In this document: in pieces, positions 1,023-31,521 of the stretch
Position numbering within the stretch: the first letter of the stretch is position 1
Layout of the letters: each line of letters starts with the position of its first letter
The notes under the pieces: generated by a model
What the model was told of the DNA's origin: nothing
The model's input: the letters and a program-made list of their open reading frames with translations, nothing else
Databases searched by the model: none
Program-made: the position numbers and the translations under genes
Origin: Eledone cirrhosa
Taxonomy: Eukaryota
Assembly: GCA_964016885.1 (NCBI GenBank)
Contig: OZ024754.1
Coordinates: forward strand, 25,234,001-25,298,000
DNA length: 64,000 nucleotides
Direction of reading: 5' to 3'

Positions 1023-1111
1023 ATTCTCGATAAAAGCAAGGGAAGTAACCTACGCGTTTCATTCTTATTAGAAATCTTCAGGATTACATATCCAGTGCTT
1101 TTATCGAGAAT
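1023..1111 (-). ncRNA. Type I hammerhead ribozyme, family A (representative full-length copy; one per intact 310-bp monomer)
   Basis: The core spans 1045-1087 and the predicted cleavage is between plus-strand positions 1051 and 1050. Distal stem I is the perfect 16-bp inverted repeat attctcgataaaagca (1023-1038) / tgcttttatcgagaat (1096-1111). Stem III is the minimal palindrome ACGCGU. Confidence 0.92.
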
Positions 1112-4100
1112 GACACAGCTAGAGACTTATAGAATACTTAGCTGTGTACAGGAACTGGTTTGAAAGAGCCGTTGCCGGTCCGGCAGAAATTAGAAATTGG
1201 ATTAAATGCTCTGAAATAGCGATATATATATGAAGATAGACATAGAATATTCGAAAACATTCTGTGTTTATAATAAACATTTTGAAGACCTAATACAATA
1301 CGTCACGTATTACAATTAGATTCTCGATAAAAGCAAGGGAAGTAACCTACGCGTTTCATTCTTATTAGAAATCTTCAGGATTACATATCCAGTGCTTTTA
1401 TCGAGAATGACACAGCTAGAGACTTATAAAATACTTAGCTGTGTACAGGAACTGGTTTGAAAGAGCGGTTGCCGGTCCGGCAGAAATTAGAAATTGGATT
1501 AAATGCTCTGAAATAGCGATATATATGTGAAGATAGACATAGAATATTCGAAAATATTCTGTATGTTTATAAGAAACATTTTGAAGACCTAATCGCTATA
1601 GAATAGAATACGTCACGTATTACAATTAGATTCTCGATAAAAGCAAGGGAAGTAACCTACGCGTTTCATTCTTATTAGAAATCTTCAGGATTACATATCC
1701 AGTGCTTTTATATATATATACATATATATATACATATACATATATATATATATATATATATACATATATATATATATACATATACATATATATATATATG
1801 TATACATATATATACATATATATATATACATATACATATATATATATACATATACATATATATATATACATATATATATATACATACATATATATATACA
1901 TATATATATATATATATATATATATATATATACATATATATATATATACATATATATATATATATATATATATACATATATATATATATATATATACATA
2001 TATATATATATATATATATATATATATATATATATACATATATATATATATATATGTATACAAATATATATATATATATACATATTTATATATATATATA
2101 CAAATATATATATATACATATATATATATACATATATATATATAGAAATTGGATTAAATGCTCTGAAATAGCGATATATATGTGAAGATAGACATAGAAT
2201 ATTCGAAAATATTCTGTATGTTTATAATAAACATTTTGAAGACCTAATCGCTATAGAATAGAATACGTCACGTATTACAATTAGATTCTCGATAAAAGCA
2301 AGGGAAGTAACCTACGCGTTTCATTCTTATTAGAAATCTTCAGGATTACATATCCAGTGCTTTTATCGAGAATGACACAGCTAGAGACTTATAGAATACT
2401 TAGCTGTGTACAGGAACTGGTTTGAAAGAGCGGTTGCCGGTCCGGCAGAAATTAGAAATTGGAATAAATGCTCTGAAATAGCGATATATATGTGAAGATA
2501 GACATAGAATATTCGAAAATATTCTGTATGTTTATAATAAACATTTTGAAGACCTAATCGCTATAGAATAGAATACGTCACGTATTACAATTAGATTCTC
2601 GATAAAAGCAAGGGAAGTAACCTACGCGTTTCATTCTTATTAGAAATCTTCAGGATTACATATCCTGTGCTTTTATCGAGAATGACACAGCTAGAGACTT
2701 ATAGAATACTTAGCTGTGTACAGGAACTGGTTTGAAAGAGCGGTTGCCGGTCCGGCAGAAATTAGAAATTGGAATAAATGCTCTGAAATAGCGATATATA
2801 TGTGAAGATAGACATAGAATATTCGAAAATATTCTGTATGTTTATAATAAACATTTTGAAGACCTAATCGCTATAGAATAGAATACGTCACGTATTACAA
2901 TTAGATTCTCGATAAAAGCAAGGGAAGTAACCTACGCGTTTCATTCTTATTAGAAATCTTCAGGATTACATATCCAGTGCTTTTATCGAGAATGACACAG
3001 CTAGAGACTTATAGAATACTTAGCTGTGTACAGGAACTGGTTTGAAAGAGCCGTTGCCGGTCCGGCAGAAATTAGAAATTGGATTAAATGCTCTGAAATA
3101 GCGATATATATATGAAGATAGACATAGAATATTCGAAAACATTCTGTGTTTATAATAAACATTTTGAAGACCTAATACAATACGTCACGTATTACAATTA
3201 GATTCTCGATAAAAGCAAGGGAAGTAACCTACGCGTTTCATTCTTATTAGAAATCTTCAGGATTACATATCCAGTGCTTTTATCGAGAATGACACAGCTA
3301 GAGACTTATAAAATACTTAGCTGTGTACAGGAACTGGTTTGAAAGAGCGGTTGCCGGTCCGGCAGAAATTAGAAATTGGATTAAATGCTCTGAAATAGCG
3401 ATATATATGTGAAGATAGACATAGAATATTCGAAAATATTCTGTATGTTTATAATAAACATTTTGAAGACCTAATCGCTATAGAATAGAATACGTCACGT
3501 ATTACAATTAGATTCTCGATAAAAGCAAGGGAAGTAACCTACGCGTTTCATTCTTATTAGAAATCTTCAGGATTACATATCCAGTGCTTTTATATATATA
3601 TACATATATATATACATATACATATATATATATATATATATATACATATATATATATATACATATACATATATATATATATGTATACATATATATACATA
3701 TATATATATACATATACATATATATATATACATATACATATATATATATACATATATATATATACATACATATATATATACATATATATATATATATATA
3801 TATATATATATATATACATATATATATATATACATATATATATATATATATATATATACATATATATATATATATATATACATATATATATATATATATA
3901 TATATATATATATATATATACATATATATATATATATATGTATACAAATATATATATATATATACATATTTATATATATATATACAAATATATATATATA
4001 CATATATATATATACATATATATATATAGAAATTGGATTAAATGCTCTGAAATAGCGATATATATGTGAAGATAGACATAGAATATTCGAAAATATTCTG

Positions 4101-7100
4101 TATGTTTATAATAAACATTTTGAAGACCTAATCGCTATAGAATAGAATACGTCACGTATTACAATTAGATTCTCGATAAAAGCAAGGGAAGTAACCTACG
4201 CGTTTCATTCTTATTAGAAATCTTCAGGATTACATATCCAGTGCTTTTATCGAGAATGACACAGCTAGAGACTTATAGAATACTTAGCTGTGTACAGGAA
4301 CTGGTTTGAAAGAGCGGTTGCCGGTCCGGCAGAAATTAGAAATTGGAATAAATGCTCTGAAATAGCGATATATATGTGAAGATAGACATAGAATATTCGA
4401 AAATATTCTGTATGTTTATAATAAACATTTTGAAGACCTAATCGCTATAGAATAGAATACGTCACGTATTACAATTAGATTCTCGATAAAAGCAAGGGAA
4501 GTAACCTACGCGTTTCATTCTTATTAGAAATCTTCAGGATTACATATCCTGTGCTTTTATCGAGAATGACACAGCTAGAGACTTATAGAATACTTAGCTG
4601 TGTACAGGAACTGGTTTGAAAGAGCGGTTGCCGGTCCGGCAGAAATTAGAAATTGGAATAAATGCTCTGAAATAGCGATATATATGTGAAGATAGACATA
4701 GAATATTCGAAAATATTCTGTATGTTTATAATAAACATTTTGAAGACCTAATCGCTATAGAATAGAATACGTCACGTATTACAATTAGATTCTCGATAAA
4801 AGCAAGGGAAGTAACCTACGCGTTTCATTCTTATTAGAAATCTTCAGGATTACATATCCAGTGCTTTTATATATATATACATATATATATACATATACAT
4901 ATATATATATATATATATATACATATATATATATAAACATATACATATATATATATATGTATACATATATATACATATATATATATACATATACATATAT
5001 ATATATACATATACATATATATATATACATATATATATATATACATACATATATATATACATATATATATATATATATATATATATATACATATATATAT
5101 ACATATATATATATATATATATATATACATATATATATATATATATATACATATATATATATATATATATATATATATATACATATATATATATATATAT
5201 ATGTATACAAATATATATATATATATACATATATATATATATATATACAAATATATATATATACATATATATATATATATATATACAAATATATATATAT
5301 ACATATATATATATACATATATATATATAGAAATTGGATTAAATGCTCTGAAATAGCGATATATATGTGAAGATAGACATAGAATATTCGAAAATATTCT
5401 GTATGTTTATAATAAACATTTTGAAGACCTAATCGCTATAGAATAGAATACGTCACGTATTACAATTAGATTCTCGATAAAAGCAAGGGAAGTAACCTAC
5501 GCGTTTCATTCTTATTAGAAATCTTCAGGATTACATATCCAGTGCTTTTATCGAGAATGACACAGCTAGAGACTTATAGAATACTTAGCTGTGTACAGGA
5601 ACTGGTTTGAAAGAGCGGTTGCCGGTCCGGCAGAAATTAGAAATTGGAATAAATGCTCTGAAATAGCGATATATATGTGAAGATAGACATAGAATATTCG
5701 AAAATATTCTGTATGTTTATAATAAATATTTTGAAGACCTAATCGCTATAGAATAGAATACGTCACGTATTACAATTAGATTCTCGATAAAAGCAAGGGA
5801 AGTAACCTACGCGTTTCATTCTTATTAGAAATCTTCAGGATTACATATCCAGTGCTTTTATCGAGAATGACACAGCTAGAGACTTATAGAATACTTAGCT
5901 GTGTACAGGAACTGGTTTGAAAGAGCGGATGCCGGTCCGGCAGAAATTAGAAATTGGAATAAATGCTCTGAAATAGCGATATATATGTGAAGATAGACAT
6001 AGAATATTCGAAAATATTCTGTATGTTTATAATAAACATTTTGAACACCTAATCGCTATAGAATAGAATACGTCACGTATTACAATTAGATTCTCGATAA
6101 AAGCAAGGGAAGTAACCTACGCGTTTCATTCTTATTAGAAATCTTCAGGATTACATATCCAGTGCTTTTATCGAGAATGACACAGCTAGAGACTTATAGA
6201 ATACTTAGCTGTGTACAGGAACTGGTTTGAAAGAGCGGTTGCCGGTCCGGCAAAAATTAGAAATTGGATTAAATGCTCTGAAATAGCGATATATATGTGA
6301 AGATAGACATAGAATATTCGAAAATATTCTGTATGTTTATAATAAACATTTTGAAGACCTAATCGCTATAGAATAGAATACGTCACGTATTACAATTAGA
6401 TTCTCGATAAAAGCAAGGGAAGTAACCTACGCGTTTCATTCTTATTAGAAATCTTCAGGATTACATATCCAGTGCTTTTATCGAGAATGACACAGCTAGA
6501 GACTTATAGAATACTTAGCTGTGTACAGGAACTGGTTTGAAAGAGCGGTTGCCGGTCCGGCAGAAATTAGTAATTGGATTAAATGCTCTGAAATAGCGAT
6601 ATATATGTGAAGATAGACATAGAATATTCGAAAATATTCTGTATGTTTATAATAAACATTTTGAAGACCTAATCGCTATAGAATAGAATACGTCACGTAT
6701 TACAATTAGATTCTCGATAAAAGCAAGGGAAGTAACCTACGCGTTTCATTCTTATTAGAAATCTTCAGGATTACATATCCAGTGCTTTTATCGAGAATGA
6801 CACAGCTAGAGACTTATAGAATACTTAGCTGTGTACAGGACCTGGTTTGAAAGAGCGGTTGCCGGTCCGGCAGAAATTAGAAATTGGATTAAATGCTCTG
6901 AAATAGCGATATATATGTGAAGATAGACATAGAATATTCGAAAATATTCTGTATGTTTATAATAAACATTTTGAAGACCTAATCGCTATAGAATAGAATA
7001 CGTCACGTATTACAATTAGATTCTCGATAAAAGCAAGGGAAGTAACCTACGCGTTTCATTCTTATTAGAAATCTTCAGGATTACATATCCAGTGCTTTTA

Positions 7101-31015: not shown

Positions 31016-31052
31016 GCTGACGATAGCTAACAAACTTGAAACTAGTACATCG
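31016..31052 (+). pseudogene. Degenerate family B hammerhead (5' strand of stem I deleted); equivalents near 36817, 42908, 49063, 55146 and 60841
   Basis: CTGACGA TAGCTAACAAACTT GAAA CTAG TA CATCG is retained. It lacks the 23 nt catctggcagaagggtatacggt found in copy 2, and stem II has a G>A mismatch. Confidence 0.8.
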
Positions 31053-31434
31053 TAACTCTGTAAGTGTTGAACAAAAAGGTGACGTGGTTGCCTTAACACC
31101 GTACGGCATAAATCAGGCTGTCCGTTTGTTTACAAACAGACAAAGCGAGCATTATAATAAATGTTCGTTAAACTGATATGTACATATATATATGTGTGCC
31201 TTTATGTATATATATATATATACATGCTACTGTACGTCTGTATGCATATATGTATGTACGTATACATATATACTTACATTTAAGTAAGTGCCGTACTAAG
31301 AGTGAGAAATTAAATTTCATTTCATTCTATTCCATTTTATCGTTTTCGGTGCGCCTGGCCGACTGAACTCACTCGATATGCAAATCAGGCTGCTCAGCCG
31401 TTAATTTTCATAAGGAAAGTATATAGTTTCGAAC

Positions 31435-31521
31435 GTTCAACCATCTGGCAGAAGGGTATACGGTGCTGACGATAGCTAACAAGCTTGAAACTAGTACATC
31501 GATCCTGTGTCAGTGTTGAAC
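31435..31521 (+). ncRNA. Type I hammerhead ribozyme, family B (intact), cassette 1
   Basis: The core at 31461-31501 reads CGGUG CUGACGA U AGCU AACA AGCU U GAAA CUAG UA^CAUCG. Stem I CGGUG/CAUCG is extended by AGGGU/AUCCU, CUGGCA/UGUCAG and GUUCAAC/GUUGAAC. Predicted cleavage is after 31496. Confidence 0.92.

Follow-up and report, generated by a model that had tools for sequence, protein, structure and literature searches.

Two tandem-repeat families in the genome of Eledone cirrhosa, here called A and B, carry hammerheads with the standard type I fold and a U·U apposition at the base of helix II and probably work as non-LTR retrozymes, an explanation to which, taken as a whole, we give a probability of roughly 0.8. 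Both occur in the 64,000-nucleotide stretch of DNA that was analysed (the window; Table 1), and both are retrozyme families with tens of thousands of copies genome-wide. Read in register, their architecture is the standard metazoan type I layout, with a 6-bp stem I, a 5' UAH bulge plus U1.7, a 4-bp helix II with a hexaloop and a palindromic helix III, and is no new subclass. Within the same explanation, U·U is very likely a tolerated state of a relaxed position 10.1-11.1 rather than a subclass badge.

The repeats have the features of non-LTR retrozymes: tandem monomers a few hundred base pairs long, each with a type I hammerhead and without ORF or LTR, with dispersed copies and Penelope-like elements (PLEs) together in this genome. 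The monomers are low in GC, and their sizes (310-500 bp) lie partly within the published range of 150-450 bp and partly a little above it; some monomers of B and of a G-C family, C, measure 466-502 bp. A and B are new members of this group, although Lünse et al. 2017 or the supplement of PMC7229834 may already show the families or variants of them.

Table 1. Positions of family A and family B features in the window.
Feature	Position	Strand	Remark
Family A tandem arrays, interrupted by (TA)n-rich tracts	1..30686	-	
One family A monomer, 310 bp	741..1050	-	bounded by two predicted cleavage sites
Family A type I hammerhead, example copy	1040..1094	-	fold and covariation
Family B insert, about two monomers, 5'-truncated, ends in (TA)n	30687..31650	+	
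Higher-order repeat of about 5.7-6.2 kb, six rounds of B insert, AT-rich spacer and A monomers	30687..64000	.	
Damaged upstream B hammerhead	31004..31058	+	stem I lacks its 5' strand; helix II has one change
One family B monomer, 449 bp	31048..31496	+	predicted cleavage site to predicted cleavage site
Family B type I hammerhead	31453..31507	+	fold and covariation

The window holds 117 A cores (stem I of at least 4 pairs) and 6 B cores, with six more B cores that are damaged. Family A is a 310-bp tandem repeat whose block starts about 34.5 kb before the left edge of the window; the 224 kb examined contained 265 exact A cores. The repeat length of B is about 450 bp. The B cores of the higher-order repeat lie at 31466, 37266, 43357, 49512, 55595 and 61292; since the repeat duplicated the B insert, these six copies represent one event and not six. 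The insert meets family A head-to-head at 30686/30687. This junction might suggest that a single enzyme inserted A and B together; the idea is unsupported, as the arrays lie 2,486 bp apart further right and a later deletion inside the satellite block explains the junction.

Hammerhead anatomy and support for the fold

The two motifs were found where they had been predicted, at 1087-1045 (minus strand, A) and 31461-31501 (plus strand, B), with CUGANGA, GAA and the GUA triplet in both. A and B share the core CUGANGA / GAAA / UH with an open-ended helix I that defines a type I hammerhead. In the family A example, C3 lies at 1081 and is accompanied by U10.1·U11.1, UUC/GAA, a UAAUAA loop and the palindrome ACGCGU; outwards there follow a 6-bp stem I, the UAU/U1.7 loop and a distal helix GGA/UCC, and cleavage is predicted after A17 at position 1051. 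The window copy of family B has C3 at 31466, U10.1·U11.1, AGC/GCU, a UAACAA loop and the palindrome ACUAGU, with stem I, the UAU/U1.7 loop and a GGG/CCU distal helix in its outer part and a predicted cleavage after A17 at 31496. Two elements of the original prediction, the U·U at the first stem II position and the 6-nt palindromic stem III, are therefore present in both families.

Other elements had to be read anew. A 4-bp stem II (UUCU/AGAA in A, AGCU/AGCU in B) under an AAYA loop had been proposed; these letters are there, but the outermost U-A is better assigned to the loop. It is invariant in 16/16 aligned variants, and an amplified family A lineage has an A in its place. The preferable reading of helix II is four base pairs, 10.1·11.1 among them, capped by a UAAYAA hexaloop, which is also how Rfam HH9 aligns it. 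Likewise, the UAU of family A exists, but it faces U1.7 in a 3x1 internal loop and is no pure bulge. The "AUA" bulge described after 5 bp in B proved to be a register shift that arises from a private mutation of the window copy, where an A at 1.6 creates an A·A mismatch at 2.6-1.6 in stem I. Genomic B copies have a U at 1.6, so that stem I reaches 6 bp and is followed by the same loop, UAU/UAA plus U1.7; in the neighbouring array, 40/55 B cores carry U and 15/55 carry A at this position.

We found pairing support in an alignment of 16 subfamily variants from four lineages, in which 12/16 pairs changed on both sides (a value reached by 4/500 shuffles), although descent from four lineages means that independent covariation events are few. 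Both-sided changes affected 5/6 stem I pairs and 3/3 inner helix II pairs across the four lineages, and 94.9% of cells paired, compared with 72.7% after shuffling and at most 50.8% when partners were slid. These results bear out the claim that both motifs are real hammerhead folds. In addition, the bulge U/A, the loop U-A-A..A and U1.7 were invariant in 16/16 variants, and the persistence of these nucleotides in four lineages is consistent with a loop 1-loop 2 contact, in which the reverse Hoogsteen pair is presumably formed by U1.7 and the last loop A.

Monomeric helix III had a predicted pairing probability of 0.000 in 5/5 motifs, and the palindromes' predicted self-pairing energies were -7.5 and -4.8 kcal/mol; the short palindromic helix III (ACGCGU, ACUAGU) is thus predicted to form a self-duplex, a feature of retrozymes that cleave as dimers. 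Circular monomers folded better than shuffles in 4/4 cases (z -4.9 to -9.1). For the isolated window A motif, an off-pathway UUUC/GAAA pairing was predicted as preferred (helix II probability 0.06), and for the window B motif a shifted stem I was predicted (probability 0.03). A and B scored 17.1 and 12.4 bits with Rfam Hammerhead_HH9 (RF02275), well under its 52-bit gathering threshold; a whole-window Rfam scan gave no hammerhead among the 150 of 340 matches listed, which were dominated by microsatellite matches to miRNA models.

Variation at position 10.1-11.1 and kinship of the families

An exact search of the 3.0-Gb genome gave 39,158 matches for the U·U/AAYA pattern as opposed to 12 for a reversed control, so that the pattern exceeds chance even though amplification inflates the count. 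A purine-pyrimidine pair at 10.1-11.1, the consensus with published exceptions, is absent from window A and B but present in their A-U and G-C relatives; with the same loop it accounted for 14,178 matches, which leaves U·U as the commonest state. Among family A cores, 9,350 had U·U and 4,016 lacked U10.1, mostly with A-U, and the U·U and A-U forms of A are 97% identical. By family, the states were U·U, A-U and G·U in A, U·U and a C·A subfamily in B, G-C in C and A·A in an older family. A candidate third U·U family came down to just 33 matches with U·U on another helix II, mostly damaged, many of them damaged B copies.

To be a subclass marked by U·U, as had been proposed for A and B, the ribozymes should have U·U fixed in all members and an architecture that is lacking elsewhere. 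We found instead that 10.1-11.1 varies between amplified lineages of both A and B, and that the same bulge, hexaloop and palindrome also occur alongside G-C, A-U, G·U, C·A and A·A. Furthermore, B is homologous to the G-C family C (z 14.6-17.5), its closest relative. The bodies of A and B had no detectable homology to each other (z -0.1 to 0.7); those of A and C were marginally similar (z 2.1-2.8), so that A, B and C may have a remote common ancestor. It is this possible ancestor, together with the unrooted order of changes, the predominance of U·U and its presence in the hammerhead-like 3' motif of one PLE family, that could speak for U·U as a single structural lineage, ancestral to A, B and C, balanced by a special contact between bulge and loop, and replaced afterwards in part of the sublineages. 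We consider this improbable: the loops of G-C, A-U and C·A lineages are identical, and therefore no U·U-specific contact is visible; U·U on another helix II is confined to the 33 matches above; and A and B are unrelated in body as far as could be detected. A tolerated state of a relaxed position remains our preferred reading.

Insertion structure and Penelope-like elements

Within-family strand switches less than 1 kb apart, counted by eye at the first 100 listed places of four genome pattern searches, were head-to-head in 33/33 cases among the matches listed; an inverted 5'-truncated arm has been described for PLEs (Craig et al. 2021, PMC8557442). The 3' ends fall at a few mid-monomer points: 14/16 at about 139 or 164-168 in A, 9/10 at 228-234 or 301-303 in C, and 35/43 rows at 210-220 or 268-275 in B on the L081 reference, with (TA)n mostly next. 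A B tally on the L022 reference (127/170 rows) was discarded, since a long TA tract gave spurious matches. The monomers of A were identical within an insertion and across both arms, with 0 differences in 6/7 multi-copy loci (two overlap), compared with a median of 4 differences in 310 between loci; B and C arrays were less homogeneous. [quoted passage not shown]

Taken together, this anatomy makes it likely that A and B spread by Penelope-like transposons. Multimeric transcripts would self-cleave as double hammerheads, with neighbouring ribozymes probably paired via the palindromic helix III. The customary contact between loop 1 and loop 2 may be formed by U1.7, the UAH bulge and the final A of the hexaloop, and this contact would make up for the weakness of the 10.1·11.1 pair. 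Cleaved monomers would be circularised, and a Penelope-like reverse transcriptase would then copy them into (TA)n sites. If the enzyme starts at fixed mid-monomer points and follows a template that is circular or multimeric, the outcome would be tandem copies identical to one another and a 5' arm in inverted orientation. A search of sequencing runs listed no RNA run, and three runs of one study contained under half of the words.

Dependence of both families on a single autonomous element had also been suggested. Each of them probably has a Penelope-like helper, but comparison with four PLE families, an incomplete library, revealed no sequence in common with the monomers of A, B or C (the best blastn match covered 27 nt at E 0.011; a short likeness of A to the PLE-1 tail had E 0.35). 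The 3' flanks of these PLE families (20 loci per family, and for three of the families up to 1.5 kb; the PLE-2 3' end lay outside) held no A/B/C-type ribozyme belonging to the element, and the motifs seen there are of another type. Pfam left two PLE ORFs without a match and gave a sub-threshold RVT_1 for a third; a PDB search had no match and an exact cluster look-up was empty. The idea that B is the 3' end of a Naiad-type PLE, raised by neighbouring ORFs, was dropped because in that element the endonuclease is C-terminal and the 3' end is its own.

Could A or B instead be the terminal repeat (pLTR) of an unsampled autonomous PLE, with the arrays as its ORF-less derivatives? The insertion structure is of PLE type, pLTR homology was found in 24/57 Xenopus families (Li et al. 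2026, bioRxiv 10.64898/2026.07.22.740005), and some copies lie directly upstream of PLE fragments (L071, L090, L109, L118). We nevertheless hold it to be rather unlikely, given the 3' flanks just described and the (TA)n or other sequence that separates these copies from the adjacent fragments, as shared targets would give. It is very unlikely, in our judgement, that the motifs are relics in repeats that now spread in the manner of satellite DNA or are carried along by PLE machinery, with 10.1-11.1 drifting because self-cleavage no longer matters. Non-pairing U·U, C·A and A·A have all been amplified, the window locus is a large satellite block whose higher-order repeats copied damaged cores, and 8/9 Xenopus retrozyme dimers tested showed no cleavage (Li et al. 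2026); yet four lineages preserve the palindrome, the loop nucleotides and every other core position while stems change in compensating pairs, B contains a U·G / G·U / A-U series, and dispersed A insertions are young by their between-locus median. A further and improbable idea is that weak 10.1·11.1 pairs are selected, a slower ribozyme letting circles survive as templates for the Penelope-like reverse transcriptase; the helper may be an abundant PLE whose own end is hammerhead-like, with U·U and U4-to-A. If so, the series U·U, C·A, A·A, G·U, A-U and G-C would tie catalytic rate to transposition success. We retain the reading of A and B as probably working retrozymes.

Comparison with known systems

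The structural claim carries little weight by itself, since the type I layout is standard and U·U already published. A U10.1·U11.1 hammerhead was reported as a natural rare variant (Perreault et al. 2011, PMC3088659), and U-U allows more cleavage than any other mispair (PMC3088659, citing Ruffner 1990); the same mismatch is rare there and the majority state in this one genome. A and B resemble canonical metazoan type I hammerheads (Rfam RF02275 HH9; layout in PMC4209133) in the 6-bp helix I, 4-bp helix II, short palindromic helix III and conserved loop nucleotides, whereas HH9 has G10.1-C11.1 and a longer helix III.

The closest parallel is the axolotl HHR_Amex2 / Rtz_353 non-LTR retrozymes (Cervera & de la Peña 2020, PMC7229834), with tandem monomers a few hundred base pairs long, a type I hammerhead with 2-bp helix III, U·U at the helix II base, tens of thousands of copies and PLEs in the same genome. 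HHR_Amex2 cleaved to 22% as a monomer and more as a dimer; its activity and circles were measured, whereas those of A and B are predicted. It is described with a helix III tetraloop and likely a weaker tertiary contact, in contrast to the palindrome with a 2-nt loop and the invariant loop nucleotides of A and B.

With PLEs and pLTR-derived retrozymes (PMC8557442; bioRxiv 10.64898/2026.07.22.740005), A and B share partial tandems, the inverted 5'-truncated arm, (TA)n targets and alternative 3' ends; unlike PLEs, they encode no protein and have hammerheads of the canonical, not the minimal, kind, and comparison with the PLE 3' ends examined gave no homology. Penelope-driven copying of retrozymes has been proposed in the literature from co-occurrence and homology, and structural evidence for such copying of a circular or multimeric template is added by the inversion of arms, by 3' ends that fall at fixed mid-monomer points at (TA)n, and by the identity of the monomers on both arms. 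Unlike Amex2, several lineages of this genome span U·U, A-U, G·U, G-C, C·A and A·A, and these amplified natural ribozymes, which differ at 10.1-11.1 on near-identical backgrounds, offer a panel for how much catalysis retrozymes need. Searches that require a Watson-Crick pair at 10.1-11.1 would miss about 39,000 of the roughly 54,500 cores counted here.

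Hammerhead layout of families A and B

A script scan of the window for type I cores found 117 minus-strand copies of motif A, arranged as 310-bp tandem monomers, and six plus-strand copies of motif B, all six from a single higher-order repeat of ~6 kb. Both motifs lie where they were originally predicted, with the U·U apposition, GUA triplet and palindrome: U at 10.1 and 11.1 and the GUA triplet are present in every A and B copy scanned in the window, and the 6-nt helix III palindrome in all except six A copies with one change each. The window is included in a satellite block of >175 kb, with A arrays on the left and B arrays on the right; an unrelated AT-rich repeat of direct and inverted units parts the two. 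At one point a 5'-truncated A meets B head-to-head directly, with zero spacer. This junction is probably a deletion inside the satellite block, an origin more likely than co-insertion of A and B.

Coordinates of features (window positions unless a locus is named)
Feature	Position	Strand
Motif A	1045-1087	minus
Window A motif with predicted UUUC/GAAA alternative	1040-1094	minus
A/B junction	30686/30687	
ATGCAAAT octamer	31378-31385	plus
Motif B	31461-31501	plus
AT-rich repeat	~32000-32530	
AT-rich repeat, 2.5-kb spacer	window+95.5 to 98 kb	
AGGTAAGTATATA motif	B monomer ~345-380; PLE-1 3' UTR	
PLE-1 hammerhead-like motif	loci L123 and L121-L140, ~0.9-1.0 kb past stop codon	
Bulged-G minimal hammerhead	loci L121, L125, L127, L129, L140, immediately before (TA)n	

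We aligned 16 variants picked by hand (five A, six B, four of retrozyme family C and one of an older family), excluding two lineages with a one-base stem I insertion and damaged singletons. Paired cells reached 94.9% vs 72.7% when shuffled, and slid controls gave at most 50.8% paired cells and at most three pairs changed on both sides. The proposal that the pairing is retained while the stem sequences differ was borne out, with both sides changing in 12 of the 16 pairs (matched by 4 of 500 shuffles), although these represent few independent events because the 16 sequences form four lineages. The sole poorly paired position was 10.1-11.1, non-standard in 9 of the 16 variants.

Position 1.6 is U in genomic B copies, so stem I of B has 6 bp, and a UAU or UAA bulge lies opposite U1.7 in the stem I loop, as in A. 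The 'AUA' originally read in B was a register shift caused by a private A at 1.6 in the window's B copy, an A also found in 15 of 55 B cores of the block. The original prediction was a 4-bp stem closed by U-A under an AAYA loop; that pair shows zero covariation among the 16 aligned variants, and in one amplified lineage of A its U is replaced by A, so a UAAYAA hexaloop on helix II is the better reading. Matches to Rfam HH9 were weak (17.1 bits for A, 12.4 for B) and align with a 4-bp helix II and a hexaloop. With the register corrected, A and B have the canonical metazoan type I layout, comprising a 6-bp helix I, 4-bp helix II, short palindromic helix III and conserved loop nucleotides (excerpts of PMC4209133). 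Motifs A and B are genuine hammerhead folds, each carried by a new non-LTR retrozyme family.

Status of the U·U apposition

We counted exact pattern matches across the 3.0 Gb genome, with control patterns. U·U with an AAYA loop gave 39,158 matches (12 control), of which 9,350 are family A and, among the matches listed, nearly all others B; purine-pyrimidine at 10.1-11.1 with this loop gave 14,178 (11 control), and U·U with another helix II gave 33. A without U10.1 numbered 4,016 (A-U in all of the first 100 listed) and B without U10.1 1,266, most with C·A; the C10.1·A11.1 B subfamily (loci L154, L211-L222) has a GUU triplet and is dispersed, with inverted arms. A first loop base other than U (602 matches, 34 control) revealed an older, diverged family (locus L244 and listed matches) with A10.1·A11.1, a GGG/CCC helix II, a GG-UAU bulge and U1.7 as in the others and, among the matches listed, mostly an ACAUGU palindrome. 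Family C (466-469 bp) has G-C at 10.1-11.1, with the bulge, loop and ACUAGU palindrome of B.

Once the ribozyme is cut out, the bodies of B and C show homology (z 14.6 and 17.5) and those of A and C are marginally similar (z 2.1-2.8), and homology between A and B bodies was not detected (z -0.1 to 0.7). Since G-C family C shares the bulge and loop, and B is akin to C and not detectably to A, U·U marks no group with its own architecture, and the subclass originally proposed is not supported. U·U may have arisen twice, or may be ancestral and reverted in C. It is a known, tolerated variant on the canonical frame, not a non-canonical feature: a natural U10.1-U11.1 mismatch is on record (excerpts of PMC3088659), and in axolotl the mismatch at the helix II base is reported in ~60,000 ribozymes, with 22% cleavage of the monomer and more efficient cleavage of the dimer (main-text excerpts of PMC7229834). 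Neither these families nor amplified variants with C·A or A·A were found in the portions of the literature searched, Lünse 2017 and the PMC7229834 supplement being outside its reach; the literature covered also included PMC6155905, PMC6765202, PMC2837043 and bioRxiv 10.64898/2026.07.22.740005, in excerpt.

Insertion structure and Penelope-like elements

Strand switches were counted by eye in the first 100 listed matches each for U·U with AAYA, A, B without U10.1 and A without U10.1; among these, 33 of 33 within-family switches under 1 kb were head-to-head. This is the inverted 5'-truncated arm of Penelope-like element (PLE) insertions (Craig et al., excerpts of PMC8557442), and PLE copies in this genome are arranged likewise. 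The 3' ends fall at two favoured mid-monomer points per family, which differ from the cleavage site, and continue into (TA)n; in A, the monomers on the two arms of an insertion are identical. We infer that a PLE enzyme would copy circular or multimeric retrozyme RNA, and one helper common to A and B is plausible.

At least four abundant PLE-like families were reached through ORFs adjoining B copies. PLE-1 combines RT motifs with a cysteine linker and, at the C terminus, GIY-YIG and CCHH motifs; in the Atlas clusters nearest to it, some members have HTH_animal, GIY-YIG and RVT_1. Among the families examined, PLE 3' regions gave zero matches to A, B or C (best E 0.011). A short, splice-donor-like AGGTAAGTATATA motif common to B and PLE-1 is weak (E 0.011-0.13).

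Read by eye, PLE-4 carries a minimal hammerhead with a bulged U and PLE-3 one with a long helix II. The PLE-1 3' end has a hammerhead-like motif (23,919 matches genome-wide) with U4 changed to A, U10.1·U11.1, a 5-nt loop on a CCC/GGG stem, a 5-bp stem I and a possible full helix III; its lowest-energy fold departs from the hammerhead-like one. Both U4-bearing copies whose flanks were viewed lie at inversion junctions. A candidate active helper is a very young PLE family (loci L171-L190) with an endonuclease region 97-100% identical in 150 of 150 scored matches, a recurring 821-codon open frame, and a terminal repeat bearing a long-helix-II hammerhead and an 8-nt palindrome. A further minimal hammerhead, with a bulged G and 6-bp helix II, is probably the end of another PLE family.

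Predicted folding

Folding predictions lacked a monomeric helix III in all five motifs and gave 6-bp self-duplexes of the palindromes, which fits the double-hammerhead model; circular monomers were predicted to be highly structured (z -4.9 to -9.1). For the isolated motifs, the predicted fold of window A moves to UUUC/GAAA pairing and that of window B to a shifted stem I, an argument against these window copies being active. The predicted pairing of UUUC with the conserved GAAA box in A is enabled by U10.1 and lost in the A-U subfamily, and could possibly be a built-in attenuator.

Newt satellite 2 has an snRNA-type promoter. The ATGCAAAT octamer, which precedes the B core by ~80-90 nt, is common to family C monomers and also forms one arm of a predicted hairpin.
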